This document shows, one piece after another, positions 13,220 to 30,455 of a stretch of 64,000 nucleotides of DNA. How positions within the stretch are numbered: the stretch's first letter is position 1; every line of letters begins with the position of its first letter. Source of the DNA: an uncultured Rhodospirillaceae bacterium (GTDB taxonomy: Bacteria; Pseudomonadota; Alphaproteobacteria; UBA9219); assembly GCA_964390005.1 (NCBI GenBank), contig CAYMGM010000002.1, positions 72,796-136,795 on the forward strand. Reading direction: 5' to 3'. The translations under genes and the position numbers were made by a program. Under the pieces are notes generated by a model, which made no database searches, was not told the DNA's origin, and saw only the letters and a list, made by a program, of their open reading frames with translations.

Positions 13220-13411
13220 CTCTTTCGGGCAAAGAAGGGTCTTTGACAGATTTACGCCAAGAAGATAAATTTTAGGTTTCCGCCCTTAATTCCTTTGTAT
13301 GACAAAGAACATTATATTTATCATATAGATAGCATTTACTGGGTCCATTTGCCTTTTCCCGATCCCCCGCCTATCTTGGCCTTGGAAACAGACGCGGACT
13401 AGAGGGGGACG

Positions 13412-14059
13412 ATGCGCACAGCCACCAATCTTCTTTTCGATCTCGATGGTACCATTACGGATTCGGCAGAAGGCATTATCAATTGTCTCGCCTATGCCTT
13501 GGATCAAGTCGGTTGTCCGGCCACATCAAAAGACGATTTGCGGCGCTATGTCGGCCCGCCTTTGTTCGATACGCTGACGTCTTTGGTCGGCGCGGATAAA
13601 ATGCGCACAGCCTATGATCATTATATCGACCGCTTCGACAAGCAAAACAAAGGCATTGAAGAAAACGCCGTTTACGACGATGTGCCTTTGATGCTCGATA
13701 AACTGCATCAGGCGGGCAAGCATTTGTATATCGCGACCTCAAAGCCTGAATTGACGGCTGAAAAAATCTTGAAGGCTTTTGGATTGGCCAGCGCCTTTGA
13801 TGCCATTCATGGCGCTTTGTGGGATGGCGTGCGGCGCGAAAAAAGCGCCGTTATCGCCTATGTCTGCGATATCTATCGACTGGATCCCGCCGACACAATC
13901 ATGATCGGCGACCGGCACCACGATATTGAAGGCGCGACGCAAAACGGGTTACGCTCGATCGGCGTTCTTTGGGGGTATGGCGGCCGCGACGAGCTTTTAA
14001 AAGCAGGTGCCGACGCACTGGCCGAAAAACCGGCGGATCTTATTTCGCTGCTCGTTTAG
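13412..14059 (+). CDS. HAD-superfamily phosphatase (phosphoglycolate phosphatase-like)
   Basis: HAD motif I LLFDLDGTITDS at the N-terminus. GAGGGGGA Shine-Dalgarno. Confidence 0.7.
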   Translation: MRTATNLLFDLDGTITDSAEGIINCLAYALDQVGCPATSKDDLRRYVGPPLFDTLTSLVGADKMRTAYDHYIDRFDKQNKGIEENAVYDDVPLMLDKLHQAGKHLYIATSKPELTAEKILKAFGLASAFDAIHGALWDGVRREKSAVIAYVCDIYRLDPADTIMIGDRHHDIEGATQNGLRSIGVLWGYGGRDELLKAGADALAEKPADLISLLV

Positions 14060-15011
14060 GCGGCGTCGCCAGCGGGTGGCAAGCCTCTATCGTTTGAATC
14101 AAGCGGTCGCCTGCGACATGCGTATAAATTTGCGTCGTCGCAATATCGGCGTGGCCCAGCATGGTTTGCACGCTGCGCAAATCCGCGCCATGTTCGATCA
14201 AATGCGTCGCAAAAGCATGGCGCAACACGTGAGGGCTCAGGCGTTTGGGATCGATCCCCGCCTGAAGGCCGATATCCTTCAATAATTGGAAAAAACGTTG
14301 CCGCGTCAGATGGCCTTCCTTGGCCGCCGCCGACGGAAACAAGAAAGGCGCGATAGAGGCTTTACGCACCGGCGGCACGGAATCCAGCATCGTTTGACGA
14401 AACGGCAGCCACGCCTTGACCGCCCGCAAAGCGGGATCGCCAAGCGGTACCATGCGTTCTTTGTCGCCCTTACCGCGGACTTGCACCAAGCCTTGATCGG
14501 CCAAAACCGCGCGCGCTGGAAGCCCCACCAGCTCACTAACACGCAAGCCCGCCGCGTATAACAATTCAAGCAACGCGCGTAACCGCACCCCATCGGCATG
14601 CGGCATTTTAGCGACGACTTTGAAAAGGGATTCAACCTCGCTCTCGCTGAGATATTTCGGCAAAGCGCGGCCAAGGCGCGGCGTGTCGATCAAGCGGCAA
14701 GGATCTTCGGCGCGCCTTCCTTCCGTACAGAGAAAACGAAAAAATTGCCGCAGCGCCGACAAACGGCGCGCTTGCGTGCGCGGCGCAAAGGCGCTGAGAG
14801 ACTGGATATAGGCGCGGATATCCTCTTCATTCGCGCTTTCCAGCGATACGCCGCGATGCGCGACAAAGTGGGCGGCATCCGTCAGATCGCGCTGATAGGC
14901 GGCACGCGTGTTGGCACTGGCTGCCCTTTCGGCCACCATCATATCTAAAAAGCCATCCATCGCGCCCAAGGCCGCCGCAGGCACAACAGGCGAAAGGGCT
15001 TTAGGCGTCAC
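14040..15011 (-). CDS. xerD: site-specific tyrosine recombinase XerC/XerD family, probably XerD
   Basis: C-terminal RHAFATHLIEHGADLRSVQTMLGHADIATTQIYTHV carries the R..H..R..Y catalytic residues. It is conserved next to aroK-aroB in alphaproteobacteria. GTG start lies immediately after the upstream gene's stop. Confidence 0.7.
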   Translation of the reverse strand: MTPKALSPVVPAAALGAMDGFLDMMVAERAASANTRAAYQRDLTDAAHFVAHRGVSLESANEEDIRAYIQSLSAFAPRTQARRLSALRQFFRFLCTEGRRAEDPCRLIDTPRLGRALPKYLSESEVESLFKVVAKMPHADGVRLRALLELLYAAGLRVSELVGLPARAVLADQGLVQVRGKGDKERMVPLGDPALRAVKAWLPFRQTMLDSVPPVRKASIAPFLFPSAAAKEGHLTRQRFFQLLKDIGLQAGIDPKRLSPHVLRHAFATHLIEHGADLRSVQTMLGHADIATTQIYTHVAGDRLIQTIEACHPLATPPKRAAK

Positions 15012-16913
15012 TTAGTCCCCCGCATCCAACAGGGTTAGAACCACTTCGCGCGCACGCCTGCGCGCTTCGGCGACCAAGCCCGCTTGGCGCAGCGCACGCA
15101 CACTATCGATGGTGACAAATAACGATTTGGCTTTCCCTGGATCATGTTCGGCCATCAGCAGGCTGAGTAAAACCGTCTCGCCCACCCGGCCTCTTTCGCC
15201 CGCCTCGCGCAACCGCGCATACAAGATAGGCGCAGGCGCCGGGCCCGTTTCAGACAAAAGCCCCGCGTCGATAACACGCAAAACGGCGTCTTCCGATACG
15301 GCATAGCCAGCCGCCGAAAGCAAAGCCAAAACGGCTTCGGCGCGTTCGCGTTTATCCTTGACCGACCCTGCCCCCATAAAATCGGTGAGCCAAGCCTGCA
15401 TTTGCCCGGCAAACGCCGTGTCGGGAACCAAGTCAGCCAGCGCAAAAAGAGGCCAATCCTTGACCGGTGCCCCACCCGCTTTATCAAGCCAGACACGTGC
15501 CGCATCGATTTGCCCCGCGGCAACCAACAAGCGCGCGGCCCAAGGTGCAAACGAAGCCAGCTCTGGCGCAAAGGCCAAAGGCGTGACTTCTGCCGCCCAT
15601 AAACCGGCTAATGTCCCCGTCAAGGGCACCTCGCCCGGCGTTTGTGCCAAACGTGTCAGAAGCGCTGCGCGGCGTGCGGGATCGATGCCCGCTTGCAGGG
15701 CCTGATAGATCAGTGCATGCAAACGCGCCCCTTGATCTTTGCTGGCCAACGGATCGGCCAATTGATCGGCGGTAAAGGATTGGTCGGCATAAACGCGCGC
15801 CAAAAGCGTGCGATCGATGATCCCCATCGAAGCCGCTTTTTCGGCCAGCGCCAAACGCGGTTTTTCATCTGTGGCACGGGCGGCAAGAAGCGCAGGCGCG
15901 TAAGAAAGCTGCGCCTCGGCAAATAACGCGCCCGGCAGAGGAAGCCCCGTTTGCAGCAACGCCGCCATCATGAGCGGATCGCTCGCTGACAGGCGTTTAG
16001 GCAGGTTTTTGCTGCCGCCTAAGGTGTTTTTCTCAACCACGGCAAGGAAAGGATCGTCGGCCACTTTTTGTTCATGCAAAACGTCCACGGCCAATTGAGC
16101 CGCGGCCTTATCGCCTGCTTTGATTTTGCACAAAATCAGCAATTGTTGCCAAGCGACCGCGTTTGGATCCGTTTCAGGATGCGATGCGATCATATCGGGG
16201 ACTTTGGCGCAGACTTGCGCTGGGTCCAATTGTAAAAAGGCATTTTCGGTCAGCGAACGCAGCGTCAGCGCATCCACGCGGCCAGGCCGCGCCATTTGCG
16301 CCATCGCCCAGGCATCTTTGGCGTCACCCAAGGCCAGCAAACGATCGATCCGAAGCGTCGTCAGGTTTTGCTCGCCCGCAGGGCCAATCGGCGCCGCCGC
16401 CACGCTAGTCAACAGGCGACGGGCCAGATCGTTTAAGGCCGCCGATGAGGTCGGCAAATGAAGCGCGGGAAGCAGCTTATCAATAAGCGAGCGGGGCGTT
16501 CCGTCCCACATATTACTGCCAAGCCCGCCATGCGCTTGATCGACAAGCCCCAAAGAATCGGGATCTATCGCCCCCAGTGGCACGGTTTTGACTGGCTCGC
16601 CCAAATCGACAGGTTGAAAAGCAGGCGGCGGCGTCAAGGCAACAGGTGCAGATTGCGGCGCTAGCGTTTGGGCATCGCTTGCAGCCTTGTCCGCCCCTTC
16701 TGGCGCGGGCGCTTGTGAAAAATCGGGCGCAGGCGCGCGTGCGTCGTCATCAGACGGGCGCTCGGCCATGGCCGTTTGCGCAGTTTCCTCGGCCCCGATC
16801 CGCGAAGAGAACGGCGCAGACTCGGCGGCGCTAGAGGCCCCCGTTAGGGCAAGGACGCCAAGGGCAAGGAGGCGAGAAAAGGAAAGCCATCGATCAATGC
16901 GGCAAACGGTCAT
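15012..16913 (-). CDS. Ala-rich secreted/periplasmic hypothetical protein (633 aa), co-transcribed with xerD
   Basis: N-terminal signal-like LLALGVLALTGASSAAES. Low-complexity Ala/Pro region followed by a helical repeat-like region. Its stop abuts the xerD start. Confidence 0.5.
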   Translation of the reverse strand: MTVCRIDRWLSFSRLLALGVLALTGASSAAESAPFSSRIGAEETAQTAMAERPSDDDARAPAPDFSQAPAPEGADKAASDAQTLAPQSAPVALTPPPAFQPVDLGEPVKTVPLGAIDPDSLGLVDQAHGGLGSNMWDGTPRSLIDKLLPALHLPTSSAALNDLARRLLTSVAAAPIGPAGEQNLTTLRIDRLLALGDAKDAWAMAQMARPGRVDALTLRSLTENAFLQLDPAQVCAKVPDMIASHPETDPNAVAWQQLLILCKIKAGDKAAAQLAVDVLHEQKVADDPFLAVVEKNTLGGSKNLPKRLSASDPLMMAALLQTGLPLPGALFAEAQLSYAPALLAARATDEKPRLALAEKAASMGIIDRTLLARVYADQSFTADQLADPLASKDQGARLHALIYQALQAGIDPARRAALLTRLAQTPGEVPLTGTLAGLWAAEVTPLAFAPELASFAPWAARLLVAAGQIDAARVWLDKAGGAPVKDWPLFALADLVPDTAFAGQMQAWLTDFMGAGSVKDKRERAEAVLALLSAAGYAVSEDAVLRVIDAGLLSETGPAPAPILYARLREAGERGRVGETVLLSLLMAEHDPGKAKSLFVTIDSVRALRQAGLVAEARRRAREVVLTLLDAGD

Positions 16914-19007: not shown

Positions 19008-19084
19008 GGACCCGTAGCTCAGCTGGATAGAGCGTCGCCCTCCGAAGGCGAAGGCCGTGTGTTCGAATCACATCGGGTCCGCCA
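19008..19084 (+). tRNA. tRNA-Arg (anticodon CCG)
   Basis: GGACCCG-TA-GCTC-AGCTGGATA-GAGC-G-TCGCC-CTCCGAA-GGCGA-AGGCC-GTGTG-TTCGAAT-CACAT-CGGGTCC-G-CCA. Closely resembles E. coli tRNA-Arg(CCG). Confidence 0.85.
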
Positions 19085-19086
19085 TA
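19035..19086. repeat. attL: 52-bp direct repeat (3' half of tRNA-Arg), identical to 29458..29509
   Basis: Exact 52/52 match read directly: TCGCCCTCCGAAGGCGAAGGCCGTGTGTTCGAATCACATCGGGTCCGCCATA. Confidence 0.85.
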
Positions 19087-19130
19087 TAAAACAACACGAT
19101 AGAGACATCTCCCGCATTAACAAACTATAC

Positions 19131-19149
19131 CTAGCTAGCAGATAGCTAG
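19131..19149. promoter_or_regulatory. palindrome CTAGCTA-GCAGA-TAGCTAG about 45 bp inside attL; related to the palindrome at 29324-29346
   Basis: Read directly. Both island termini carry AGCTAGC-based inverted repeats, which may be recombinase or accessory-factor binding sites. Confidence 0.4.
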
Positions 19150-19435
19150 TAACAAGTATGACTACGGCCCCTCCCCCTAAGCTATTTTGAGCTACTTTTG
19201 ATATTTTCCAAGCCCTCGCATATCATCTCCCACAATTTCCAAATAATTTTATATACGATGCCCCAAAATGGCAGCAACACGACCATTTTTAAGCAGCTTA
19301 ACATTTTATAAACCATTGATTTATCAATTACTTTCTTTCCCATCCAGTAAAATCAAAGAAACGAAAGACCCTCTTTCCGGGAGTTCATTGGTTAATAAAT
19401 AATGAAACGATTTTGAAAAAGCATAAGGAGGCGCT

Positions 19436-19837
19436 ATGTTGAACCCATCAAAAGGTAAGATCCTTTATCTGAAGCCGGGACGCATGAACGACACTTCGCC
19501 CATCGTTATCGACGGTAATGATTGCAACGGTCCTTTCGGGGAACGTATTGGGCGCGTCTATACGCTGCAAATGCCCGAAGGTTCTTATCGAAAAGTGGCT
19601 ATATATGGCGATGATCTGCCACCCGAATATGCGCATGTCCTTTTTGTGAAAAAAGGAGCTGAGGGAGAAAAGAACCCTCTATCTCACAGAGACCCCAATG
19701 AAAGCACAAAAGGTCTTCCCGCTCTTCTTGCCGCGTTTGATCAAGAAACGGCATATGGGGCCAAACCAAAGGGAAGAACATCTTCGTCAGTGCCACGGCG
19801 AGACTTTTTGGATCCCAAAGCAGCCTGCGGATCATAG
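19436..19837 (+). CDS. island cargo gene A: hypothetical protein (133 aa)
   Basis: AGGAGG Shine-Dalgarno. First gene of a tight 3-gene operon with 30- and 53-bp gaps. No motif recognised. Confidence 0.5.
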   Translation: MLNPSKGKILYLKPGRMNDTSPIVIDGNDCNGPFGERIGRVYTLQMPEGSYRKVAIYGDDLPPEYAHVLFVKKGAEGEKNPLSHRDPNESTKGLPALLAAFDQETAYGAKPKGRTSSSVPRRDFLDPKAACGS

Positions 19838-19867
19838 TTGCCACTGCGTTAAGCAAGGGAAGCAACT

Positions 19868-20752
19868 ATGGCTATACCCAAAAGGACGGCAGTGCTTGCC
19901 GCGACAGAGATTGGGCTTTGGTTGAAAGACCTGTCTCTTTGCGACCACTTTGAACTTGCCAGCAGCGAATGGCTTTTGCCCGAAGCGCGAGCCATCGGAA
20001 CATATTTAAAGATCTTGATGAAACGCAAGGGGGTGTGCCATCTCTTTGCCCCGGCTTCTCGGATTTTATGCTATTCCGGGCCTCGCAAATATGTGGATAG
20101 GGCCTGTCGAAAGGTAACAGTAGACCCCAATCACGACCGAGCCATCTATCTTGCCGATCACGGTCTTTACACATTGTTGGAACGCACAAGCATGGGCCAA
20201 CACTTGGACAATTATGTAAAACGAGAACCAGATCCCTTAAAAAGAACGCTTTATGGCTTTTTGAAAAGCATCTATGTCACAGAAAAAATAGATGTAAATA
20301 TTAGGGAAGAACAAAAGAAGCGAGCGCAAAAGCAAGGCGATCTTTTGATGGGGTTTGTGTCGGCGGCTTATATCTTTACATCACGGGATCATGTCGAAAC
20401 CGTGGTAGCCGGGGCCAGTTTTGAAAAAGTATTCTACCTGTTTGAGCTTCCCGCGCTGATGCTGAATCCAGAAATCAAAACGATCAACGCCGTATCGGCA
20501 GACCGTTTCAGAAAGATCTATTTTTCCGGCCATCCCAACGCCGCCTATGAAACATATAAAATGATTTGCGAAAGCGAAGTCGCCCTTTTCAAGAAAAGAG
20601 CCAAGGCTGCAGGAAAAGGGACGCCGTCTTGGCAACTGTGGAAAGAACAACACGCCGTTTGGCAGGCGGATTTGAGCCAATTTAGAGCTGTTAGCGTCTT
20701 TCGCGGCATTTTATCGAAAAAGGCGCTTTGCGCGGGGGCTGGGGTGGCTTGA
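19868..20752 (+). CDS. island cargo gene B: hypothetical protein (294 aa)
   Basis: Long ORF in AT-rich DNA. No motif recognised. Confidence 0.55.
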   Translation: MAIPKRTAVLAATEIGLWLKDLSLCDHFELASSEWLLPEARAIGTYLKILMKRKGVCHLFAPASRILCYSGPRKYVDRACRKVTVDPNHDRAIYLADHGLYTLLERTSMGQHLDNYVKREPDPLKRTLYGFLKSIYVTEKIDVNIREEQKKRAQKQGDLLMGFVSAAYIFTSRDHVETVVAGASFEKVFYLFELPALMLNPEIKTINAVSADRFRKIYFSGHPNAAYETYKMICESEVALFKKRAKAAGKGTPSWQLWKEQHAVWQADLSQFRAVSVFRGILSKKALCAGAGVA

Positions 20753-20805
20753 TCGGTTGCAAAGTCTTGTGGCATAGATCGCATGATATTTGATGATGAA
20801 TTGCT

Positions 20806-21612
20806 TTGACAGGTTTAAGCATGCGTAAGGTCTATTACGGAGAAGATGGCGATCTTGTCAATCTTCGAACCTTTGTCGAGAGACAAGGCCCCGATCCCAA
20901 TAAATGGACGCTCCAACCCATTTGCAAGGGCTGCGGGCGGGTCGTTACCCCCATCAATGTCAAAGTCGTCTTGGGGTTTAGCGAAGTTAGCGAAGAAGTC
21001 GCCCAAAGAGCCGGGGAAATGGGAAGGAAGCCTCAAGCCCCTCATTTCCGTCATAAAGATGGCGAAGGCGAAGGTTGCCCTTATGACGACAGAAAGGACC
21101 CTCTTTTCGCGCCATTTCATGAAAATGAATTCGATATAAGAGCGAGGGAGCGCGTGCGTGATGTGTTGTTCTCGCCAGAAGTAAAGGCAATGAACGGGGC
21201 CATGATGCGCATGCTGTATTGGCATTTGACCGGAAAGTGGGCAATCCCAGACGGAGACGGAAAAGCAATATGGCGCTTCGCTGAAAAGAGAGTTTGCAGC
21301 ATGTCCGTTCTTATTCAACGTCCGTGGATCTTTCCATTTGCTCAAATACTTTTTGCGGGGGCGCGGGATGCTTACTTTAAAGGCGTCAAAACGCCTTTGC
21401 AGTTTCTTCCCATGGGAAAACAGGCTTTCGAATTTCGAGATTTTGAAGGCAGAAAAAGACATGCCGAGCTTCCACAGGGCGTCGGCCTTTATTTCGCGAG
21501 CAACTTTGCTGAGTTTCGTTCGCGCGGACAGGACAGGCAACATGTCCGTTATGAACTCTCGGAACAAGGGGTCATCAAGATCGCAGAGGCTTCAAGAGCA
21601 ACGTTTGGATAA
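20806..21612 (+). CDS. island cargo gene C: hypothetical protein (268 aa) with a possible Cys/His zinc-ribbon-like motif
   Basis: C-x2-C (CKGCGR), a later HFRH and then CPYDD. No family recognised. Confidence 0.5.
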   Translation: MTGLSMRKVYYGEDGDLVNLRTFVERQGPDPNKWTLQPICKGCGRVVTPINVKVVLGFSEVSEEVAQRAGEMGRKPQAPHFRHKDGEGEGCPYDDRKDPLFAPFHENEFDIRARERVRDVLFSPEVKAMNGAMMRMLYWHLTGKWAIPDGDGKAIWRFAEKRVCSMSVLIQRPWIFPFAQILFAGARDAYFKGVKTPLQFLPMGKQAFEFRDFEGRKRHAELPQGVGLYFASNFAEFRSRGQDRQHVRYELSEQGVIKIAEASRATFG

Positions 21613-22032
21613 AGAAAAATTGCGCAAAGCATCATTATGCGTGCACCATACAAACCTATTCAAAATGTGTTTTTTCTTGGCACTTTTACAGTTTTCTTCC
21701 ACCGTCTTTGACAGAGTGAGGGATTTCCCATCTTCGGGGTATCGAAACCTCACCTGTAGCGGTTGTCTTGCTCTGCCTGTCCGAAAACAGCGCGTTTTCT
21801 AAAACAGACTCAGCACGACGAAGACGTTGGTTTTTTGGTCCAGCGCTGATTGACGTTGCCGAAACAAACGTTGCCCCCGGCTTATCGGCTGGAAGGCAGG
21901 CGCGGACATCCAAGCCTTGCGGCCAAAGGCCCTTGCATCGTCTACAGGCGATTTCGAACTCCCAGCCACCAGCGGGTGAACCCCGTTGGTTGGCTCTTGC
22001 GAAACTTACTTGCTTTTGCAAAGGAGAAGCCG

Positions 22033-22320
22033 ATGCTTTGTAGAAACGATGGATGGCTCTTTGTCGTCCCGCTCATGTGTTTTGTGTTCTTGGGGGCTCT
22101 CACAGCATATGCAGAGCAAAATGAGAAACAACCGCACCCGCCCGAACGATCAGCGTTCTTATTGCTAAACGTAGAAAATCAAATACCAGAAAACTGGCCA
22201 AGCCAAAGCCATCCTGAATACAGGGGATGCTGTTCACATCATGGCGGGGTCTGCGGTTGCAGTGGTGGAAGCGCCTCTTGCTGCGATGGCGCAATCAGCC
22301 CGACTTGCGGCTGCAATTAA
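22033..22320 (+). CDS. small secreted Cys-rich protein, DUF3761-like (CSHHGGV core motif)
   Basis: AAGGAGA Shine-Dalgarno 8 nt upstream of the ATG at 22033, so the ORF-track 5' extension is probably not translated. Signal peptide WLFVVPLMCFVFLGALTAYA. C-terminal GCCSHHGGVCGCSGGSASCCDGAISPTCGCN. Confidence 0.5.
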   Translation: MLCRNDGWLFVVPLMCFVFLGALTAYAEQNEKQPHPPERSAFLLLNVENQIPENWPSQSHPEYRGCCSHHGGVCGCSGGSASCCDGAISPTCGCN

Positions 22321-22334
22321 GCGAGGATGGCATT

Positions 22335-22847
22335 ATGAAGCGCATCCCGCGATTCCTTGCTCTGCTGTTTTGGGTTTCTGTTTTTTCATTACAGGTTTGT
22401 TATGCCGATAACGTTTCGTTGGAAGCAGCCTTTTCGCCAAGGCAGGGCGCAACCGAGCTTGTTGTAAAAACGATCAATGAAGCCCAAGAAAGCGTACGAT
22501 TGGCTGGGTATTCTTTTACTTCTCGGCGTGTTGCCGCGTCTCTTGTTGCCGCAATGCGACGCGGTATTGACGTTAAAGTCGTTCTGGATAAAAGCCAAGA
22601 TAACAACCGGAGCCTGGCTGGGCTACTGAAAGAAAACAACGTCCCGGTGCGGATCAATCGTCGTTATTCTATCATGCATAACAAGTTCATCGTCGTTGAT
22701 AACAAGGCTCTGGAACTTGGAAGCTTCAACTATTCTAGGGCTGCCGAGGAACGAAACGCCGAGAATGTATTGGTTATTCGCGGCGCACCTTCTATCGTCG
22801 CAGACTATGCCCGACAATGGGACAAGCTTTGGGGTGAGGCCGAGTAA
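22335..22847 (+). CDS. periplasmic phospholipase-D-family endonuclease (Nuc-like, single HKD motif)
   Basis: GAGGA Shine-Dalgarno. Signal peptide MKRIPRFLALLFWVSVFSLQVCYA. HKD motif MHNKFIVVDNKALELGSFNYS. Size and layout match plasmid pKM101 Nuc. Confidence 0.7.
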   Translation: MKRIPRFLALLFWVSVFSLQVCYADNVSLEAAFSPRQGATELVVKTINEAQESVRLAGYSFTSRRVAASLVAAMRRGIDVKVVLDKSQDNNRSLAGLLKENNVPVRINRRYSIMHNKFIVVDNKALELGSFNYSRAAEERNAENVLVIRGAPSIVADYARQWDKLWGEAE

Positions 22848-22920
22848 CCATACAAAAGAAAATATGGCCCTTGCATTGGTTTGAACACCAACAGTATTAT
22901 TAATCAACATTGGCTGCTAA

Positions 22921-23640
22921 ATGGAGGTTGTAAACATTTCTATGAGAAAAGTTTTCACATTGTCAGCCTTTGTCTTCATGCTTTGTTTTGGAACTTCTGC
23001 TTCTGGCTTAGTCACAGAAACAGGGCGAGTTATGCCATTCAAAATTCTATGTGCCATTCGAAACCCATTTTTTCAAAATAATATGGTGGCGGCGCAAATT
23101 TCCATAACCGTTGAAGGCGGTACACCCATCGATTGGATGGCGACAGGAATTTATGTTGCCGAGAATTCTATAATTAATGGTGTAACCTTTAGTGAGGTTG
23201 AGGTTTATGTGCCATCTCCTTGGGGGGACCAGCCCCCAACACTTTCCAAGCAGTTGGCAAATGTTTATTACGCACCAGATCCTGCGCATTCTCCATGGAA
23301 AGAACGGTGGCAAATCACAGCCGCAGATCATGCGGGAACTCTTGCTGATATTGAGTACCAAAAATTACAAAACGATCTCATTGAGAAATACGCTGGCCAA
23401 TACTCTGATCCTGATGTCCTTACAAAAAAAGTCGATGCAGAGGCAAAAAAAATCGTCACTCACAAATACAGACTTACACCTAAATGGAAACCCGACATGA
23501 ATTTGGGTTTAAAAGGAAAGCTACATGATCGAGCTGAAATTAATGTGGTGAGTTTAGGAAAAGATCAATATCCGCTATCCTTGATGGCAAAGTGTTTAAG
23601 AAACCCACCTGCAGCAAATACATGCCAGCAGTCTCGATAA
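22921..23640 (+). CDS. secreted hypothetical protein (alternative start MRKVF at 22942)
   Basis: Signal peptide MRKVFTLSAFVFMLCFGTSASG. Lowest-GC stretch in the window. Confidence 0.5.
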   Translation: MEVVNISMRKVFTLSAFVFMLCFGTSASGLVTETGRVMPFKILCAIRNPFFQNNMVAAQISITVEGGTPIDWMATGIYVAENSIINGVTFSEVEVYVPSPWGDQPPTLSKQLANVYYAPDPAHSPWKERWQITAADHAGTLADIEYQKLQNDLIEKYAGQYSDPDVLTKKVDAEAKKIVTHKYRLTPKWKPDMNLGLKGKLHDRAEINVVSLGKDQYPLSLMAKCLRNPPAANTCQQSR

Positions 23641-23645
23641 CGCTT

Positions 23646-24194
23646 CTAAACAGTAGATGCTTCTAATCCCGTTGTTTCGCGATTAAAGGTTTGAAAGCCG
23701 CCTTTACCGCAATCGATCCGCGCCGTGTCGGTTGTGATGGCTATAACGCTTCGCCCCTCCAGCGCGGGAACAAGCCCCATAGCATCATAACGGATTTCTG
23801 GCGCGCGAGGATCGACGCCAAAGATGTCCGATGCTTTCCAGCCCAATGCCGCCGCTTTGTCGCCCCATTTATCCAAAAACAGTCCCCCATCATTTAATAA
23901 TTGTTCCCAGCGTTCGATTGCATAAGCCGAGGGGCGCGGCATAGTGCAGAGCGCCGCAAACCCTTCGGACCATTCTTTGGGTACACCGTTCGCCTCAATA
24001 AGCGCTGCACGTTCTTCCCAAGCGTCAGGATCAAGTTCTAAAGAAACGGGCGTTATTTTTTCCGCCATCTGTTGTTCAGAATGTTCAGAACGTTCAAAAC
24101 AACCCAACACGTCCTCATTCTGAACAAATTGAACATTTTGAACAGGCGCGATCACATGTTGGCTTTTCTCAAGCATTGCAAACCAGCGGCTCAT
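23646..24194 (-). CDS. hypothetical protein downstream of the primase; N-terminus uncertain, start may be at 24068
   Basis: Its start overlaps the primase stop. The first 40 codons coincide with the iteron cluster, so the true start may be the internal Met MAEKITPV. Confidence 0.4.
   Translation of the reverse strand: MSRWFAMLEKSQHVIAPVQNVQFVQNEDVLGCFERSEHSEQQMAEKITPVSLELDPDAWEERAALIEANGVPKEWSEGFAALCTMPRPSAYAIERWEQLLNDGGLFLDKWGDKAAALGWKASDIFGVDPRAPEIRYDAMGLVPALEGRSVIAITTDTARIDCGKGGFQTFNRETTGLEASTV
24073..24144. promoter_or_regulatory. iteron cluster: 3 direct 9-bp repeats TGTTCA(G/A)AA, an 18-bp spacer, then 3 inverted copies; putative replication origin for the adjacent primase
   Basis: Read directly: tgttcagaa tgttcagaa cgttcaaaa ... 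ttctgaaca aattgaaca ttttgaaca. As I recall, the phage P4 ori and crr are built from TGTTCACC octamers bound by the alpha protein. Confidence 0.45.
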
Positions 24195-26593
24195 GATAAG
24201 CCCCCTGCCACCATGGGGTTGACTTCCCAGTCACTGCGTTTACGCCCAATAAGAGCGAGCCCTGCGCGCCGGATCCAGCCATCACGTTCAAGAATGTTAA
24301 AAGCGGCTTGTCTTGGGGCCTTCTTTCGCAAGTGACCAAAACCTGACGTTTGATACAAGGTTCTCTCGTTAATCAAGTCGGCTTTATTGTTGACGATAAA
24401 GCGCATGATCGAAACGGCATCTGTTTCAGCTTCGTCAACGGCTAGCCCATGGAGAACCCGATCAAACATCGCCTCCAGATAATCAAGATAGGTACAGGCA
24501 TGCGCCATAGAGGCAGCGGAAATATCATGCGGTTCGGATGCCGAGGAATCAATGGCCCAGCGAAGATACTCTATCGTCAGAGCAAGGCGAAGAGCGCGGG
24601 CGGGCGTCTTCCCGTGCCATCCTGCGGCCAATCCTTTGGCGTCTCTTGCCTTCTCAATCGCTTCATGGCGGGCCGTTTCAAACAAGCGCATAGCTTCGTC
24701 TGATAAGCGGACAATCCGAGGCGAGACGCTTCCATCTTTGTCTTCATCCATTTGAAGACCACGTAAACGCCGCACCAACACCAACAGAAAGTCGCGTCTT
24801 TTTTGACTTTCGATATGATCTTCTTCTCTCAACGGGGCATAGGGTGCCAGCCGTGGCCAAACGTAACAAAAACGGGCGGAAAGCCCATCATCTGCCCCAG
24901 CCATTGCTTCGCGCAATTTGTCGGGCTGAAGGCCGCCCAGAATGGCAAGCGAAGCGTAAGGCACAACAACGGGCTTCCCCGCATTCTTGACAAGATCAAC
25001 GCTAAAACGCCCACCGTTCCAACTTTCCAGATAAAAACTCCGATCTGCCCCTGCGCCGCTGTAACGGTCAAAACTACCAAGCCAGCCCGAAAGTTCATCC
25101 CGCAAAAGCAACAGGCCTTTTGGATTTCGGCTTAATATGTTTGTCGTTTCCTGCGTTGTCGATTCACAAAGTAGAACGCGGGGTTCCACGGGGGCCTCAG
25201 GGATTTGCGCCTCTGGCGGCATCGGTGGCGCAGGAAAGCCATCTTTTGCTGCCTTTGCAATATCGCTTTCCCAGAGCTTGCGCTTCGCGTTGGCAAAAGC
25301 GCATTTCGTCTCATGGTCGATCATTTGTGTTTGCCATGCCGGACTCGCGTCTGCCTCCAGCGTTTTGCAAACTTCCGTAAAAACCTGTTGGGATGGTGTT
25401 TTGCCTCCGCTTGGCGGTGAAACAATAGCACCCCAAATATGAGGCGGTTCAACCCAATCCCCTGTTGCTGCAATGCGCCGAGCATTACCTAAGCAAGCGC
25501 TGGCAACTGTCAGAAGGTTCAGGGCAACGAAATCCACAGGACAAGCCTTTGCCACGGCCATATCTTGGCACCACGCCCACAAGGCGGGAGGCAAACTGTC
25601 CGGGTCAAAGGTCGGTGGGGCTATATCTTCATTCCGATATAAGGACAGGTCGGGTTCGGGCCAAGGAAGCCCAGAGCTATTGGTCATTGGCATTTTTTCT
25701 TCCACGCGAATGTTTTTAAGCTGGCTCTTGACGGCTTCCAATCCTTCCAAAATGTGAAGGTCGTTAAAGTCAGTCGGGCGGGTGGTTGTGTCTTTGAATG
25801 TCGGGAAAACGACGCCGCAGCCAAACTTTGAAGCCATGGCCTCGGCTTTCGTGCGTCCCGCGTTACCCTTTTCGGGCTTCCATCGATCATCGTCGCCCGC
25901 AAGGACAAGACAGAGCTTGGGATTCCGTTCACGCAAAGCAGTAACGACAGGTTCAAGATTCCCGGCATCAAAGGCCACGATGACAGGTTGTCCTGTTGCC
26001 ATATAAAGGCTGGCCCCTGTGGCGTAGCCCTCTGCCACATAGGCAAAGGTAATATCAGACAAGACCGCCGCACCGATCAGGTGAAAGCAACCTTTCTTCC
26101 GCGCCCCTTCTTGAAAAAGCTTACGCCCGTCTTTGTCGATGGTTTGAATGTTCCAAAGCTTTCCATCAACATCACGCAAGGGAAGGATTAGGGTTTCCGG
26201 TGCGTTGACCCCTTGCTTCAATCCATAAGCTTTGACACGCTTTACAGAAAGATATGGCGTTGTCTGAGCCTCTGGAAGCTTTTCCCAATACTTTGTCAGC
26301 CGTGCCGCGGTCGCTTGTTGTTGGTCCCGTTCTTGGTTTTCTCGCCGCCGTCTTTCTTGTTCGATTTGCTCGGCCTGTCTTTGTTGTTCGGATTGGGTTA
26401 ACCGCGCCCCGCCGTTAGACCATTTTCCGTTAACCCCGCCCGCCCAATCGCCAAAAGCGCCGTGATCGCCATAAAAGACATACCACGCATCCGGGGCTTT
26501 GCGTCCGTTGGGTCTAAAGCGATGGATTTTTCCATCTGGAACCAACCCTCCCGGTGGCGCTCCGATCCCTGCCGCTAACATGGCCTCAAGCAT
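24191..26593 (-). CDS. P4-alpha-like DNA primase/helicase (N-terminal zinc-binding/primase region, TOPRIM, C-terminal DUF3987-like helicase-type domain)
   Basis: TOPRIM-like AYVAEGYATGASLYMATGQPVIVAFDAGNL. P-loop-like SPPSGGKT. Length 800 aa, close to P4 alpha at 777 aa. Confidence 0.65.
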   Translation of the reverse strand: MLEAMLAAGIGAPPGGLVPDGKIHRFRPNGRKAPDAWYVFYGDHGAFGDWAGGVNGKWSNGGARLTQSEQQRQAEQIEQERRRRENQERDQQQATAARLTKYWEKLPEAQTTPYLSVKRVKAYGLKQGVNAPETLILPLRDVDGKLWNIQTIDKDGRKLFQEGARKKGCFHLIGAAVLSDITFAYVAEGYATGASLYMATGQPVIVAFDAGNLEPVVTALRERNPKLCLVLAGDDDRWKPEKGNAGRTKAEAMASKFGCGVVFPTFKDTTTRPTDFNDLHILEGLEAVKSQLKNIRVEEKMPMTNSSGLPWPEPDLSLYRNEDIAPPTFDPDSLPPALWAWCQDMAVAKACPVDFVALNLLTVASACLGNARRIAATGDWVEPPHIWGAIVSPPSGGKTPSQQVFTEVCKTLEADASPAWQTQMIDHETKCAFANAKRKLWESDIAKAAKDGFPAPPMPPEAQIPEAPVEPRVLLCESTTQETTNILSRNPKGLLLLRDELSGWLGSFDRYSGAGADRSFYLESWNGGRFSVDLVKNAGKPVVVPYASLAILGGLQPDKLREAMAGADDGLSARFCYVWPRLAPYAPLREEDHIESQKRRDFLLVLVRRLRGLQMDEDKDGSVSPRIVRLSDEAMRLFETARHEAIEKARDAKGLAAGWHGKTPARALRLALTIEYLRWAIDSSASEPHDISAASMAHACTYLDYLEAMFDRVLHGLAVDEAETDAVSIMRFIVNNKADLINERTLYQTSGFGHLRKKAPRQAAFNILERDGWIRRAGLALIGRKRSDWEVNPMVAGGLS

Positions 26594-26728
26594 GAGACAA
26601 CCCTAGCGCAGAGATAAGGAAATCAACAACATTAGGAGCAAACAAACCAAGCTCCTTTGCCAGTAAAATCGTCCGTTTGGCCGCTTGAGGTGGCAGGAAG
26701 ACAATAAGAACAAGAAAGGCCTTTAACT

Positions 26729-26971
26729 TCATTTCTGGCCTCCCGTCTCAGAAGTGCTGCATCGTGGCGAGCTTAGGCGGTTTTCAGCCCAATCCAAGGC
26801 ATCGCCCCAACGATAGAGAACTCTTGAGCCAAAGGTTCTGAAGATCGGCCCCCCGCCCCGGCTTGCTTTCGTGGCTAATGTCTTGGCCTTAACCGGAAAC
26901 CCACAAGCTGTTAAGGCGGCAGCCGTAGCTTCACGGGTTAAAAAATCGTCTGGATTATTTAGTGTTTTCAT
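26729..26971 (-). CDS. alpA: AlpA-family phage transcriptional regulator/excisionase-like HTH protein
   Basis: An 80-aa protein with LTREATAAALTACGFPVKAKTLATKASRGGGPIFRTFGSRVLYRWGDALDW, typical of AlpA/Xis-type winged-helix regulators. Confidence 0.55.
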   Translation of the reverse strand: MKTLNNPDDFLTREATAAALTACGFPVKAKTLATKASRGGGPIFRTFGSRVLYRWGDALDWAENRLSSPRCSTSETGGQK

Positions 26972-27060
26972 AAGACCACCATGTAATTTTCGATGGTCAT
27001 ATTATTTCATTCTACAACTATTGATTTCAATTAATTATAACTATTGTGTGCATTTACTTT

Positions 27061-27112
27061 GTAAAAGTCTGACAGACATTAACGTGTTTTCGTAAAGTCT
27101 GGCCCAGACATT
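27061..27112. promoter_or_regulatory. two adjacent about 23-bp operator-like direct repeats, each an internal palindrome (GTCTG-A-CAGAC and GTCTGG-C-CCAGAC), upstream of alpA
   Basis: Read directly: aaagtctgacagacattaacgtg / aaagtctggcccagacattaatac in the AT-rich alpA leader. Confidence 0.4.
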
Positions 27113-27273
27113 AATACAAGCCTGAAACGAAATAGTCATGAACACCTAGATCGCAACCAAAAACCAACAATGCAAACCTGTCGTACTGGACACGCTTTTT
27201 AACATATCGATTCGCCCCAACGCCTTTCTGGCCACCTGTCACTGTTTCACTCGCTCGCCTTCGCACCTTGAAA

Positions 27274-28011
27274 CTAACGCGCCTTCTTTGCCGTGGACAG
27301 GGCTCTTGCGACAGAACTTTCTGCATACCTCTTGATTGAACCATCGCTTTTGGGTCTCCCGGTGCCTTCCATGATCGTTTTTATTTGCTTCCGAACAGGC
27401 ATTCTTAAAAAATCAACATTATTGAGAGCCTGTTCTATTGCATCTCTAAGGTTGAGTTGTCCCTGATCCCCTCTTTGTTTGTTACGCCCGCTTCCTTTCG
27501 ACCTCCCCTCATCCATTCGCAAACGTTGTTTTGCATATGCCGCAGCGACGATAAGATTACCGATGGATCCATCCAACTCTCCCCGTTCATCTTTTCTTTC
27601 AGGAAAAAAGTCCCAAATACTTACCATTCCATCTATTTTGTAAAAATCTGCCATTTCCATCAAAGCAAAGGCGTATTCATTGTCAAAACAATTACGAACC
27701 ACGTTTATCAGCTTTCCAAAAGGTTCCATTAAAAAACGTTCTTCGTCCGTAAGTGTCGGATCGATCATAACGTCGCCCCACCTCCTATCATCTGTTGAAT
27801 CCACAAATGTGCGGACCACTCGTATATCGGGAAGATTTGAATCTTCAATCTTTTCATACAGGGCCGGATTTTTCTTCGCGACGAACTCAATGTGAGAGAT
27901 GAAGCAGCTTTCGACCTCATTTTCGATCCAATCCGCGACTTGCCTGCCAATATTTTCATAAAACTCTTTCTCGCCCGCTTTCTTCGCCTTCTGTTCTGTC
28001 TTTCGTGTCAT
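27274..28011 (-). CDS. hypothetical protein (245 aa), translationally coupled downstream of int
   Basis: A 4-nt overlap with the int stop. AT-rich. No motif recognised. Confidence 0.5.
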   Translation of the reverse strand: MTRKTEQKAKKAGEKEFYENIGRQVADWIENEVESCFISHIEFVAKKNPALYEKIEDSNLPDIRVVRTFVDSTDDRRWGDVMIDPTLTDEERFLMEPFGKLINVVRNCFDNEYAFALMEMADFYKIDGMVSIWDFFPERKDERGELDGSIGNLIVAAAYAKQRLRMDEGRSKGSGRNKQRGDQGQLNLRDAIEQALNNVDFLRMPVRKQIKTIMEGTGRPKSDGSIKRYAESSVARALSTAKKAR

Positions 28012-29300
28012 TTTCTTCCCCTTTGACGCATTGGAAGTATGTCTGCGGAATAATGAAAAGCCCCCATCATCTCTCCAACCTTATTCGCGATCACATCTGC
28101 GGCTGCAAGCAAAACCATATCTGCCGAATGAATATATCGCGATGTTATTGAATGCCCTTTATGCCCGACAAGAGCGGCAATCGTGGGCTCGGAATAACCT
28201 AGGTCGGCGGCCAGAGAAGCAAAAGAGTGGCGCAAAACGTGTGGCGTAATATCAGTATTAAGTTCACCCATTTTGGCAATCTTGGCCCAGAATTTTGGAA
28301 ACCCAACCATCGTGCCACGGCCTCGCGAAGCCGGAAAAACAAGATCATTTCCATCCCGCATCTTAATTCCCTTAAGAACATCGCATGCGGCCATCGAAAG
28401 TGGACGAATAGATAGGCCTGTTTTGGTATCTTCTAATGTTGCGGTTCTGTGCGCAAAGTCTATTTCTTTCCATTTAAGATTTAAGACCTCTCCACTGCGC
28501 CAACCCGTCAAAGCGAGCAAGCGCACAGCACACAAAGCTGGCGGCCAAACATCGTTCAATTCGGCTTTTCTTAACGCCGTTCCCAGCGCGTTAAATTCAT
28601 CTTCAGATAGACGTCTTTGTCGCTTTCCGTCTGCATAACGAATAACCCCATGAACCGGATTATCCAGACGCAAGCCGAGCTTAATCGCATAGGCAAATAT
28701 GGCACCTAAAAGACCAACCGTTCGGCTGGCCGCACCCTTGCCACCACGCACATTTGAAAGAGCATGTTTCTTTTCGCCTTTAATCTTACATGCCGTCTTT
28801 CCTTCGGCCACCTTGTGCATAAACGCTTCAATATCGTTTTGCGTAACTGCAGCAACCTTCATTTTCCCTAAAAGTGGCCTAATATGTCTTTCAATGCGCC
28901 CCTTATCAGATATAAGGGTACTCGCCTTCTTGGGAATCTTACGCCGCGTTAATAGCCTCCCGGCTTCAGCATCTTTCCAGTATTTGTCACATAGGTCAGC
29001 AACGGTTGGAGCTTTGCGTGCTTCCCCTTTTTCTGTGGCGGGATCTAGCCCCTTGGAAACATCCCCCAAAAGCTCACGCGCCTTTTCTCGCGCCATATCC
29101 GGTGTCCAAGGCGCACCATGGCGACCTATCGTGAACCAACGCTGACGACCTTCTTTGGTTCTATAAAAAAGAACGTACGAAACGGCATCCCCTTTCTGAC
29201 GCCGCGCTCCAAATCCCTTTACGGTCGTATCCCAAATAATATCTCCAGCACCTAAGGAGCGTATCTCTCGCAATCCGATCTTTATTGTTTTTGTCGTCAC
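28008..29300 (-). CDS. int: tyrosine site-specific integrase (P4-type, with N-terminal arm-binding domain)
   Basis: C-terminal HVLRHSFASLAADLGYSEPTIAALVGHKGHSITSRYIH gives the R-H-R-Y catalytic tetrad. GTG start. Lies adjacent to attR. Confidence 0.85.
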   Translation of the reverse strand: MTTKTIKIGLREIRSLGAGDIIWDTTVKGFGARRQKGDAVSYVLFYRTKEGRQRWFTIGRHGAPWTPDMAREKARELLGDVSKGLDPATEKGEARKAPTVADLCDKYWKDAEAGRLLTRRKIPKKASTLISDKGRIERHIRPLLGKMKVAAVTQNDIEAFMHKVAEGKTACKIKGEKKHALSNVRGGKGAASRTVGLLGAIFAYAIKLGLRLDNPVHGVIRYADGKRQRRLSEDEFNALGTALRKAELNDVWPPALCAVRLLALTGWRSGEVLNLKWKEIDFAHRTATLEDTKTGLSIRPLSMAACDVLKGIKMRDGNDLVFPASRGRGTMVGFPKFWAKIAKMGELNTDITPHVLRHSFASLAADLGYSEPTIAALVGHKGHSITSRYIHSADMVLLAAADVIANKVGEMMGAFHYSADILPMRQRGRK

Positions 29301-29323
29301 AGCAAAACCCTTTGTTTGGTTGC

Positions 29324-29346
29324 TTAGCTAGCAATTAGCTAGCTAA
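29324..29346. promoter_or_regulatory. palindrome TTAGCTAGC-AATTA-GCTAGCTAA, 24 bp upstream of the int start and about 110 bp inside attR
   Basis: Read directly. Related to the AGCTAGC palindrome near attL. Confidence 0.45.
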
Positions 29347-29457
29347 CTTTAGCACAAACACGCAACCAAAGGCAAAGCCCAACAAACAAATACAACGTGT
29401 TTTGTTGGATAAATCAAATTCGATCCGCTTGCTAGGAATAATTGCAAACGCTAAGAT

Positions 29458-29509
29458 TCGCCCTCCGAAGGCGAAGGCCGTGTGTTCGAATCACATCGGG
29501 TCCGCCATA
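29458..29509. repeat. attR: 52-bp direct repeat copy of the tRNA-Arg 3' half
   Basis: Identical to 19035..19086. Confidence 0.85.
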
Positions 29510-29558: not shown

Positions 29559-30356
29559 TTACGAACATGTCCACGAAAAATAGACCCATCCGCAGCCGCT
29601 GTTACAGCAGCCGGACCATGTGTTGTAATACTGCGTGTCGGCGGCAATCGCCCCGTAATTAAACGACGTCAAGCAGCCACAAGTATTGCCGATGCTCAAT
29701 GAAAAATTGGGGACGCCATATGTTGCATTCGTATTCACACACGAAGGCGTCACCGTCGGCGATGCGTTCGACCCCGAACAACTCCACATCGGTTGAATCC
29801 ACATGCGCCACTCAGACGTTCCGCATGCGCCGCTTCCAATTTCTGAATACTGCGAAACACCATTATTCAGCCTTTGGGCTGGTGCTGTCCAATCACCGCC
29901 GCAACACACCCCAGCGCGAATATTGATTGTTACATAGCCAAAGGATCCATCGGCTTTTTTACAAATATTCTCACGCAAGGGAAATGAACTGCCGCTTTGC
30001 CCCATCGTCTGCCAAGACGTGCCATTACAGGCTTCAAAGGCCGTCCCGTTCCACTGAAGAACCCCAGCGTGTGAGGCATCACAGGCCACCGAGCTATTTC
30101 CAAGCGACAAAGAGGCGCGCTTCCATACGCCGCCCGAACATTGAAAGATTGTATCCCAATCCACACCGCTAGCGCCTTCTGAAGAACAGGCTGTGCCATA
30201 GTCATGTTTTTCATTATCAACTTTGGCCGCGCGCGCTGGCGACAGGCCGCACAAAAAGATAAGACAAAGAAAGACAGCCCACAGATGTTTCTTGCTTTGA
30301 CGATACAAAAGAAGATAAGGCATCATGATAAACCACCTCAAAGGACGGCGTCCCAT
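29559..30356 (-). CDS. secreted Cys/Trp/Gly-rich repeat protein of unknown function (start probably MMPYLLLY)
   Basis: Signal peptide. At least four internal about 27-aa repeats with the pattern C-x5-G-x2-W-x6-C-x-G-x-W. Ends CCNSGCGWVYFSWTCS. Lies immediately outside attR. Confidence 0.5.
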   Translation of the reverse strand: MGRRPLRWFIMMPYLLLYRQSKKHLWAVFLCLIFLCGLSPARAAKVDNEKHDYGTACSSEGASGVDWDTIFQCSGGVWKRASLSLGNSSVACDASHAGVLQWNGTAFEACNGTSWQTMGQSGSSFPLRENICKKADGSFGYVTINIRAGVCCGGDWTAPAQRLNNGVSQYSEIGSGACGTSEWRMWIQPMWSCSGSNASPTVTPSCVNTNATYGVPNFSLSIGNTCGCLTSFNYGAIAADTQYYNTWSGCCNSGCGWVYFSWTCS

Positions 30357-30455
30357 CTTAGAGAAAGGAGAGAAAGGTCTATCTATTCATATAAAATAAC
30401 ACAAATATTTTCCTCTACAAAACACCATCGCAACGACAGGAAGATGGGATCCATT

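Follow-up and report, generated by a model that had tools for sequence, protein, structure and literature searches.

By gene layout, the closest described counterpart of the locus analysed here, and a nearer one than P4, is PICMI (phage-inducible chromosomal minimalist island). The locus is a 10.4-kb island integrated at a tRNA-Arg(CCG) gene in a 64,000-nt stretch of contig CAYMGM010000002.1 (positions 72,796 to 136,795) from an uncultured Rhodospirillaceae bacterium; this whole stretch is termed the window, all positions are those of the window, and the island is the part of it between the two copies of the attachment (att) repeat. PICMI115 carries an integrase gene (int), an integrase-overlapping gene (iolg) that mostly overlaps int as ATGA and is needed for excision, alpA, a small gene and a primase gene detected by the DUF3987 model; it has no packaging or capsid-remodelling genes, its concatemers are packaged by a virulent helper phage, and one of its genes serves defence (PMC10803314). 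These islands have integration at fis as their hallmark, and complete PICMIs have been found only in Vibrio (PMC10803314). The island described below is read, with a probability of roughly 0.62, as a self-integrating, self-replicating and particle-less element of the minimal phage-satellite type, PICMI-like or P4-like.

Set against the published description, the island has in common with PICMIs int, a gene overlapping it as ATGA, an excisionase-type winged helix-turn-helix (wHTH) protein, the optional small gene and a DUF3987 primase; as in PICMIs, there are no capsid-remodelling or packaging genes and the accessory cargo is small, and the iolg families are diverse ORFans like w245, the int-overlapping gene of the island. 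It is distinguished from them by its position at tRNA-Arg(CCG), with aroB on one side and a hydrolase/tag/RNase J block on the other and not downstream of fis, by a host outside Vibrio, and by its length (10.4 kb versus ~6.7 kb). Its wHTH protein also scores below PF05930 and PF12728. Of the three genes that the PICMI model requires side by side, int, alpA and a DUF3987/DUF5906 primase, the alpA component is recognised only via relatives and RdfS. By the fis and Vibrio definition the island is not a PICMI, though by analogy it plausibly works like one.

SatelliteFinder calls P4-like satellites by a rule of seven core components, of which no more than two may be missing (PMC10085698); as only three of the seven are found in the island and four are missing, it is not a P4-like satellite under this rule. 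It resembles P4 (NC_001609) in tRNA integration by an arm-domain tyrosine integrase, in size (~10-11 kb), in the distance from the attP core to the int start (152 bp in P4, 157 bp in the island) and in the position of its iterons, those of P4 crr (TGTTCACC) being likewise TGTTCA-based, spaced at ~9 bp and directly downstream of the primase gene. In contrast to the 20-bp core of P4, the identity block of the island covers 52 bp from the anticodon stem; int lies upstream of the replication operon, and a DUF3987 helicase takes the place of that of alpha. The 'P4-like core' proposed in a first-pass annotation of this DNA is thus borne out by the architecture of the integrase and by the primase domain; it is not borne out by the helicase, and the integrase shares only 26% identity with P4 Int over 160 aa. 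With phage-inducible chromosomal islands (PICIs) and Staphylococcus aureus pathogenicity islands (SaPIs), the island shares int, alpA/xis and a pri-rep module; unlike PICIs and capsid-forming PICIs, it has no terS, ppi/rpp or capsid-morphogenesis genes. The trio of int, alpA and primase is classed as a low-confidence 'Type C' (three of five components) that could represent a mobile element of some other sort (PMC10085698). Tycheposons consist of a tyrosine recombinase, an excisionase, a primase/helicase, cargo and flanking partial tRNAs and are enriched in vesicles (bioRxiv 10.1101/2020.12.28.424599). The parts list of a cargo-carrying tycheposon, as found in Prochlorococcus and other marine bacteria, is present in the island, including one full and one partial tRNA; tycheposon integrases form a clade of their own, whereas the integrase of the island is known here by its P4-type, arm-domain architecture.

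The att pair and the putative recombination genes

The integration target, tRNA-Arg(CCG), occupies 19008-19084 on the plus strand and is intact, as ARAGORN and Rfam agree (Rfam tRNA, 67.5 bits), with its 3' part provided by the island side. A block of 52 bp at 19035-19086 (attL) is repeated at 29458-29509 (attR) with 52/52 identity, the next base differing (T versus G). The attL copy consists of the last 50 nt of the tRNA gene and 2 more, running from the anticodon stem-loop to 2 nt beyond the CCA end; it opens with the anticodon stem's first base, and stem, loop and stem (TCGCC / CTCCGAA / GGCGA) all lie within it. The attR copy is a displaced 3' part of the tRNA, 157 bp upstream of the int start codon. 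With up to three mismatches allowed, the terminal 24 nt of the tRNA were found at two sites in the 64 kb, where shuffled sequences led to an expectation of 0.00. The first-pass annotation had reported this exact copy of the tRNA-Arg 3' part 10.4 kb from the gene, which proved letter-perfect, and had named a second tRNA gene as one finding that would overturn its reading. No tRNA was called at 29458-29509 by ARAGORN or Rfam, and the tRNA 5' half is also absent before the second copy; the duplication is therefore an attL/attR pair and not a second gene.

Between the att copies lie 10,371 bp with a GC content of 48.4%, compared with 54.6% in both flanks. Within the island the cargo is at 47.0% and the core at 49.5%, and w245 is AT-rich like the cargo; the 'distinct AT-rich cargo block' described before is thus only weakly distinct, the island being low in GC throughout. 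Taken together, the att pair, the drop in GC and the integration genes confirm the 10.4-kb integrative element at tRNA-Arg(CCG) that had been proposed. An Rfam scan of the island matched the tRNA and no other RNA family. The predicted attB consists of the tRNA 5' half ending in ...GGATAGAGCG, the 52-bp block and GAAGCTATTGTTCGCC, and the predicted attP of ...CAAACGCTAAGAT, the same block and TAAAACAACACGATAG. Int would recombine the 52-bp attP core with the tRNA gene, thereby regenerating the tRNA, and the crossover probably takes place in the anticodon loop. Sublocation classes of tRNA-integrating elements were reportedly defined by Williams in 2002, and an anticodon-loop crossover would fit them. 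A Logan contig that carries aroB (L001, from run SRR9878565; L-numbers denote fetched loci or contigs, mostly of relatives) stops 30 nt into the 52-bp repeat, at window position ~19064. Because an assembly graph with k=31 breaks at the repeat either way, this stop is uninformative on excision.

The integrase gene (28008-29300, minus strand) is full length and encodes a tyrosine integrase of P4-type architecture, with arm-binding, SAM-like and catalytic domains assigned through Pfam (Arm-DNA-bind_3, E 1e-9; Phage_int_M, E 1e-6; Phage_integrase, E 1.5e-23) and with the RHR-Y region present. The assignment as a P4-type integrase made in the first-pass annotation was confirmed in architecture, while direct likeness to P4 Int is weak (BLASTP, 26% identity over 160 aa, E 3e-4). 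Candidate arm-type sites were found on the inner side of both att copies. At the left end, a palindromic motif, CTAGCTAGC-AGA-TAGCTAGT, lies at 19131-19150, 45 bp inside attL, and is a candidate site for Int or for a recombination directionality factor (RDF). At the right end, two copies of TTAGCTAGC and one inverted copy lie at 29324-29346, between the int start and attR, and possibly overlap the int promoter. The octamer TAGCTAGC occurs four times in the 64 kb, against 0.44 expected, and every copy is within ~130 bp of an att copy on its inner side; these are probably arm-type recombinase or RDF sites, which would help intasome assembly by flanking the core.

Immediately downstream of int is w245 (27274-28011, minus strand), a 245-aa ORFan whose ATG overlaps the int stop codon as ATGA, read in the sequence at 28008-28011. 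The co-transcribed unknown of 245 aa that had been noted before is thus present and fits the integrase-overlapping gene of PICMIs. No homologue of w245 was found among 5.8 billion proteins, nor any Pfam, PHROG or PDB match, and hhalign detected no similarity to its positional equivalents in two related loci (L051, L147). A functional label beyond 'iolg-like by position' was dropped on these grounds.

A further gene (26729-26971, minus strand) encodes an 80-aa protein resembling excisionases or RDFs of the wHTH type. A phmmer comparison related it to RdfS (8dgl) at E 0.008, and a homologue in L180 shares 46% identity with it. When it was aligned with this homologue and six small proteins encoded just upstream of the primase genes of relatives, five of the eight proteins matched HTH_17, and the family profile matched RdfS at E 3.7e-7. 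Given the RdfS similarity and the HTH_17 matches in relatives, the protein is classed by sequence as an excisionase/RDF-type winged helix and not as a Pfam-defined AlpA; of the earlier label 'AlpA', it is the functional type that survives and the Pfam family that does not.

Replication module, candidate origin and relatives

The RDF gene is separated from w245 by 300 bp of 39% GC, in which a regulatory region for an RDF-primase operon (27001-27115, minus strand) is indicated by a promoter prediction and repeats. A sigma70-like promoter was predicted at 27030-27001, and the region contains two copies of CAATAGTT and two TTAATGTCTG-N(1-3)-CAGAC palindromes (27067-27077 and 27097-27109); within the window, TTAATGTCTG and CAATAGTT are confined to 27001-27115, and the repeats look like operators. 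The repeats at 27013-27115 were also considered as an origin, and this was rejected as they overlap the predicted promoter and the iterons of relatives lie 3' of the primase gene. A 48-aa open reading frame (ORF) at 26586-26732 on the minus strand, called as a gene in Logan contig L138, bridges the RDF and primase genes, overlapping the RDF stop codon as ATGA and the primase start by 8 nt.

The primase-helicase gene (24191-26593, minus strand) encodes 800 aa with a Toprim domain of the DnaG/P4-alpha type (Toprim_3, E 2e-8), a DUF3987 helicase domain (E 3e-61) and a C-terminal domain, and matched PHROG families of DNA primases/helicases. In an alignment of 24 sequences, the Toprim residues E188, D234 and D236 and the Walker-like residues K398 and D499-E500 are invariant. 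Biochemical work on a DUF3987 protein identified it as a 5'-3' helicase carrying Walker A/B motifs (PMC11724360). The primase part is homologous to that of P4 alpha, residues ~110-300 aligning with alpha 128-311 at a probability of 99.4% in hhalign, and BLASTP giving 35% identity over 102 aa (E 1e-14). Neither hhalign nor BLASTP matched the helicase part of alpha or its C-terminal origin-binding domain in this protein. The 'alpha-like primase/helicase' of 800 aa reported before is therefore alpha-like in its primase domain, and its helicase is of the DUF3987 type and not that of P4.

A candidate replication origin was located at 24073-24144, an array starting 47 nt past the primase stop codon, in which three (T/C)GTTCA units, spaced at 9 bp, are followed by 24 nt of spacer and three inverted copies; a putative iteron origin had been mentioned in the first-pass annotation without coordinates. 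The pattern of the iteron triple has a single site in the 64-kb window, against 0.00 expected, and in 2.1 Mb of fetched loci it is limited to close relatives of the element. Inverted TGTTCA arrays are found at or just past the primase stop codon in L051, L053-L056 and L147, and other inverted arrays with 9-bp spacing occupy the same place in L201 (CTGCTAC), L166 (GACAAAAC) and L152 (CCCGAC). Primase relatives that retain an inverted array directly 3' of the gene are ~26-47% identical to the island protein, those with TGTTCA arrays being 46-47% identical. Because position and geometry of the array are kept while its unit changes with the adjacent primase, a cognate Rep-iteron origin can be argued for, and the conserved position of this putative origin with its changing unit is the strongest comparative result of the analysis. 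In SaPIs, too, the origin consists of iterons immediately 3' of the replication gene.

Downstream of the candidate origin, an ORF of 140 aa (23646-24068, minus strand) has no assigned function; its start is placed at Met43 of a 182-aa ORF (w182), as the first 42 codons of w182 are iteron DNA. The sole match of w182, to residues 1-70 of an ORF in L053, was discarded as translated iterons and not protein conservation.

At E <= 1e-10, the primase-helicase has more than 1,400 matching proteins, and many of these are in metagenome bins labelled Alphaproteobacteria. The order of int, an overlapping or contiguous gene (169-347 aa), a helix-turn-helix protein of 75-91 aa and the primase was found in five relatives (L051, L147, L152, L166 and L201), two of which neighbour tRNA-Ser (L152) and tRNA-Lys (L166). 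Except for the pair from L051 and L147, the genes adjacent to int are mutually unrelated by detectable similarity. L201 (944-13714), whose primase is 26% identical, is a complete 12.7-kb island between exact 47-bp repeats of a tRNA-Arg(CCT) 3' part, and its int starts 155 bp from its repeat copy, the same geometry as in the island studied here. Its cargo comprises a type I restriction-modification system and a Schlafen/AlbA-HATPase gene, and the CTGCTAC iterons follow right after the primase gene. Two of the closest relatives carry such genes downstream of the same kind of TGTTCA origin: L053 has a type I restriction-modification system (10865-16523), and L056 (5270-9681) a CD-NTase with a patatin, resembling a cyclic-oligonucleotide-based antiphage signalling system (CBASS), and an HTH-methylase-S fusion. 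The visible cargo of relatives is thus defence.

The w133-w294 cassette, other cargo and flanking DNA

The cargo is on the plus strand, convergent with the minus-strand core, and opens with two neighbouring genes, w133 (19436-19837) and w294 (19868-20752). The w294 product (294 aa) is a homologue of NAD(P)+ glycohydrolases of the CD38/ADP-ribosyl cyclase (ARC) fold, as indicated by profile comparison, an AlphaFold2 model and Foldseek. It had no Pfam or PADLOC match, and its family amounts to 47 representatives among 1.84 billion proteins. The family profile matched PDB 9ro8, a Pantoea type VI secretion system (T6SS) 'ADP-ribosylcyclase toxin', at E 4e-4, and aligned the LEDT-like, S..F..A.G.V and ELP.L blocks in order with Aplysia ADP-ribosyl cyclase and Tac1. 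An AlphaFold2 model built on the family alignment reached a predicted local distance difference test score (pLDDT) of 93, and its Foldseek matches in the PDB were nearly all NADase/ARC folds (8ka1, 9ro8, 3zwm, 1lbe, CD38 and 9ouf), the structures named being RDTND, ARCtox, Aplysia cyclase, CD38, BST-1 and Tac1; these scores are weak (E 4e-3 to ~1, template modelling score <=0.53 on the target). As the profile match, the block alignment, the model and Foldseek all agree, w294 is placed in the ARC fold. The catalytic glutamate E193 (ELPAL) is invariant in the family and the E105/D block and S165 are conserved; a Met stands in place of the Trp preceding the conserved Ser block.

No Pfam, PHROG or PADLOC match was obtained for w133, a small protein with a strong Shine-Dalgarno sequence that is encoded as the upstream partner of w294. 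In L143, a w133 homologue (36% identity over 72 aa, E 3e-9) is encoded directly upstream of a w294 homologue, beside a MobA relaxase and a serine recombinase, and in L144 a 134-aa gene takes the w133 position upstream of a w294 homologue, beside a P4-type integrase. A KAACG-like C-terminal tail is present in the w133-position proteins of all four contexts observed.

In work from 2025, bacterial ARC enzymes were characterised as toxins that deplete NAD(P)+ and have immunity genes next to them; stand-alone bacterial ARC enzymes of unknown role have also been described (PMC12356396, PMC12605009). w294 is like Tac1 and ARCtox in its profile match to 9ro8, its ARC fold, its E(146-like), Ser and catalytic-Glu blocks, and its small adjacent partner. 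Unlike them, it is a stand-alone cytoplasmic protein of 294 aa with extra N- and C-terminal helices and without a T6SS, type VII secretion or contact-dependent inhibition delivery domain; its partner is upstream, where the immunity genes of Tac1 and ARCtox are downstream, and one active-site Trp is a Met. On this comparison w133 is a candidate immunity protein or antitoxin, and we infer that w133-w294 may be a toxin-immunity or abortive-infection cassette.

Of the remaining cargo, the gene with the clearest assignment (22335-22847, plus strand) encodes an endonuclease of the phospholipase D (PLD) family, Nuc/NucT-like, that bears a signal peptide and in which the HxK(x)4D motif is intact. It matched PLDc_2 (E 1e-24) and phrog_12711 (E 5.5e-44), with NucT and DrmC models below their cut-offs. 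A DISARM system was considered and rejected, as PADLOC gave only sub-family matches to DrmC-like PLD proteins, without DISARM partners. A homologue of this nuclease, 42% identical, is encoded at 2153-2566 of L059, an IMG/VR contig of 38 kb on which there is also a gene for a Toprim primase related to that of the island.

Between the cassette and the nuclease gene lies w268 (20821-21612, plus strand), which has a CxxC...HFRHK...CPYDD motif and no assigned function. Its homologues form only two clusters, 40-41% identical and in another context (HTH_3 and GNAT). An AlphaFold2 model of w268 was discarded (pLDDT 35), and a CoiA-like Zn-ribbon/nuclease motif was an impression backed by no tool. The following ~420 bp (21613-22032) contain weak overlapping ORFs on both strands and had no family or Rfam match. 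A small secreted Cys-rich protein is encoded at 22033-22320 on the plus strand (w156 ORF, likely start Met62), with an N-terminal hydrophobic, signal-like segment, a C-terminal CCSHHGGVCGC...CGC and no family match. Downstream of the nuclease gene, w239 (22921-23640, plus strand) encodes a predicted secreted protein of 239 aa with a signal-peptide-like N-terminus and no assigned function; it had no family match and forms a singleton cluster.

The genes flanking the island are housekeeping, with aroK-aroB to the left and a gene for a Cys-rich secreted protein, an alpha/beta hydrolase gene, tag and RNase J to the right. The best relatives of AroB are from Alphaproteobacteria (such as Sphingomonas and Methylorubrum, 47-52% identity). 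The Cys-rich protein just outside attR, w265 (29559-30356, minus strand; 265 aa), had no family match, and a spacer of 35% GC lies beyond it at 30357-30455; no further att remnant was found around 29559-30455, and gene and spacer could be older horizontally acquired DNA at a tRNA hotspot. Four kb to the left of the tRNA, a tyrosine recombinase gene of the XerC/XerD type (14040-15011, minus strand; Phage_int_SAM_1 and Phage_integrase, Logan gene call) is chromosomal and lies outside the island.

Nature of the element and its meaning

From the genes present we infer that the island excises, replicates and depends on a helper in the following way. Excision would be carried out by Int with the wHTH RDF and, by analogy with PICMIs, probably also w245. 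The RDF-orf48-primase operon would be driven from the operator-rich promoter at ~27000-27115, and the primase-helicase would bind its cognate TGTTCA iterons, unwind the origin and prime the excised circle for the host polymerase. Because there are no packaging, capsid or conjugation genes, spread from cell to cell would need a helper, most likely through headful packaging of concatemers by a phage, as for PICMIs. The cargo would pay for its carriage through the ARC-fold cassette, a candidate toxin-immunity or abortive-infection system, and the secreted PLD/Nuc nuclease.

The reading as a minimal satellite-type island draws on a core of int, excisionase, primase-helicase and origin together with the absence of particle genes. 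No island ORF belongs to the capsid, terminase, tail, lysis, sid, psu, delta, epsilon or cI families in Pfam or PHROGs, and BLASTP against all P4 proteins gave the island ORFs no significant match to Sid, Psu, Delta, Epsilon, cI or Vis; the best Sid match (E 0.004) came from w265, outside attR. With NCBIfam in agreement, the earlier statement that capsid, sid, psu and delta genes are absent was confirmed, and its description of an island, satellite-like or mobilisable, as opposed to a prophage is supported. In addition, distant full-length relatives of the primase (26-33% identity) are found on contigs of 5-15 kb that IMG/VR classes as viral, which is compatible with satellites and weak as evidence.

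Several findings weigh against the satellite reading. An empty tRNA-Arg site, which the first-pass annotation had suggested looking for in related genomes, was not found by an AroB-query search of genome contigs, in which relatives were no more than 52% identical; exact-protein look-ups with the flanking hydrolase and the primase gave no match, and occurrences of the island are confined to a single NCBI contig and to one or two sequencing runs. No helper phage was identified, and no gene of the island is known to interact with a phage. In SatelliteFinder terms the island would be a low-confidence 'Type C PICI'. The 80-aa wHTH protein has no Pfam match of its own, the role proposed for w245, a gene without homologues, is taken solely from its position, and no repressor or inducer sensor is recognisable in the island. 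As for the cassette, given the Met in place of Trp, NADase activity of w294 is not assured.

The most credible alternative, though an unlikely one, is a cargo-carrying integrative and replicative element that is independent of phages, of the tycheposon type or mobilisable, and that moves by vesicles, transformation or conjugative mobilisation. It would be in keeping with the lack of any gene that interferes with or redirects a phage capsid, with tycheposons, which share the parts list and are vesicle-enriched (bioRxiv 10.1101/2020.12.28.424599), and with the MobA relaxase and serine recombinase that adjoin the ARC cassette in L143. Against it, searches of the island, with Pfam and NCBIfam for protein families, revealed neither a relaxase nor a coupling protein or oriT-like feature, though an oriT may escape detection from sequence alone; the nearest layout, with its int-overlapping gene and DUF3987 primase, is that of an experimentally proven phage satellite, and the small viral contigs of IMG/VR that carry full-length primase relatives point weakly in the same direction.

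It is improbable that the island is a fixed or decaying former mobile element that has lost the capacity for excision or replication and is retained only for the cargo. Its restriction to one genome or sample, without presence/absence polymorphism in a population, the lack of a recognised regulator and the several orphan cargo ORFs would agree with such a fate. The core ORFs are full length, however, with RHR-Y of the integrase and the Toprim and Walker residues intact, as are the ATGA couplings and the iterons, and the non-functional attR copy is still 52/52 identical to the tRNA. A temperate-prophage remnant stripped of its structural genes is very improbable. The homologues that the Toprim primase domain and the PLD nuclease have in phage genomes would agree with it. 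Against it, structural, lysis and terminase genes are absent, even as fragments, many small islands with defence cargo share the compact, conserved int-X-HTH-primase-ori module, and both the size and the exactness of the att sites are those expected of a small element that is complete.

A more far-reaching form of the satellite reading can be put forward only tentatively. The island would be a functional, helper-dependent satellite of an unnamed, widespread lineage defined by a Toprim-DUF3987 protein, cognate 3' inverted iterons and an int-overlapping ORFan, extending the PICMI type from fis in Vibrio to tRNAs in other Proteobacteria, and w133-w294 would be an undescribed stand-alone CD38/ARC NADase system acting in toxin-immunity or abortive infection.

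Small tRNA-integrating islands of the satellite type with int, excisionase and primase are a kind already well known, and the cargo of this one is somewhat unusual. As such islands are common and their route of transfer is often unknown, one more adds little by itself. In the island, the full PICMI-style layout, ATGA-overlapping gene and DUF3987 primase included, is found at a tRNA site and in a host that is not one of the Vibrionaceae. Its moderate interest rests on the co-varying origin rule and the ARC-fold cassette. The rule, by which inverted, 9-bp-spaced iterons lie directly 3' of the primase-helicase gene and change their unit as the primase diverges, is one for the lineage as a whole and may be used in annotating it and in testing primase-origin specificity. 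The stand-alone CD38/ARC enzyme, which is not in PADLOC, recurs with its conserved partner beside integrases and a relaxase; should the cassette prove to be a defence or addiction module that acts by NAD depletion, it would connect mobile-element biology with the bacterial ARC toxins described recently.

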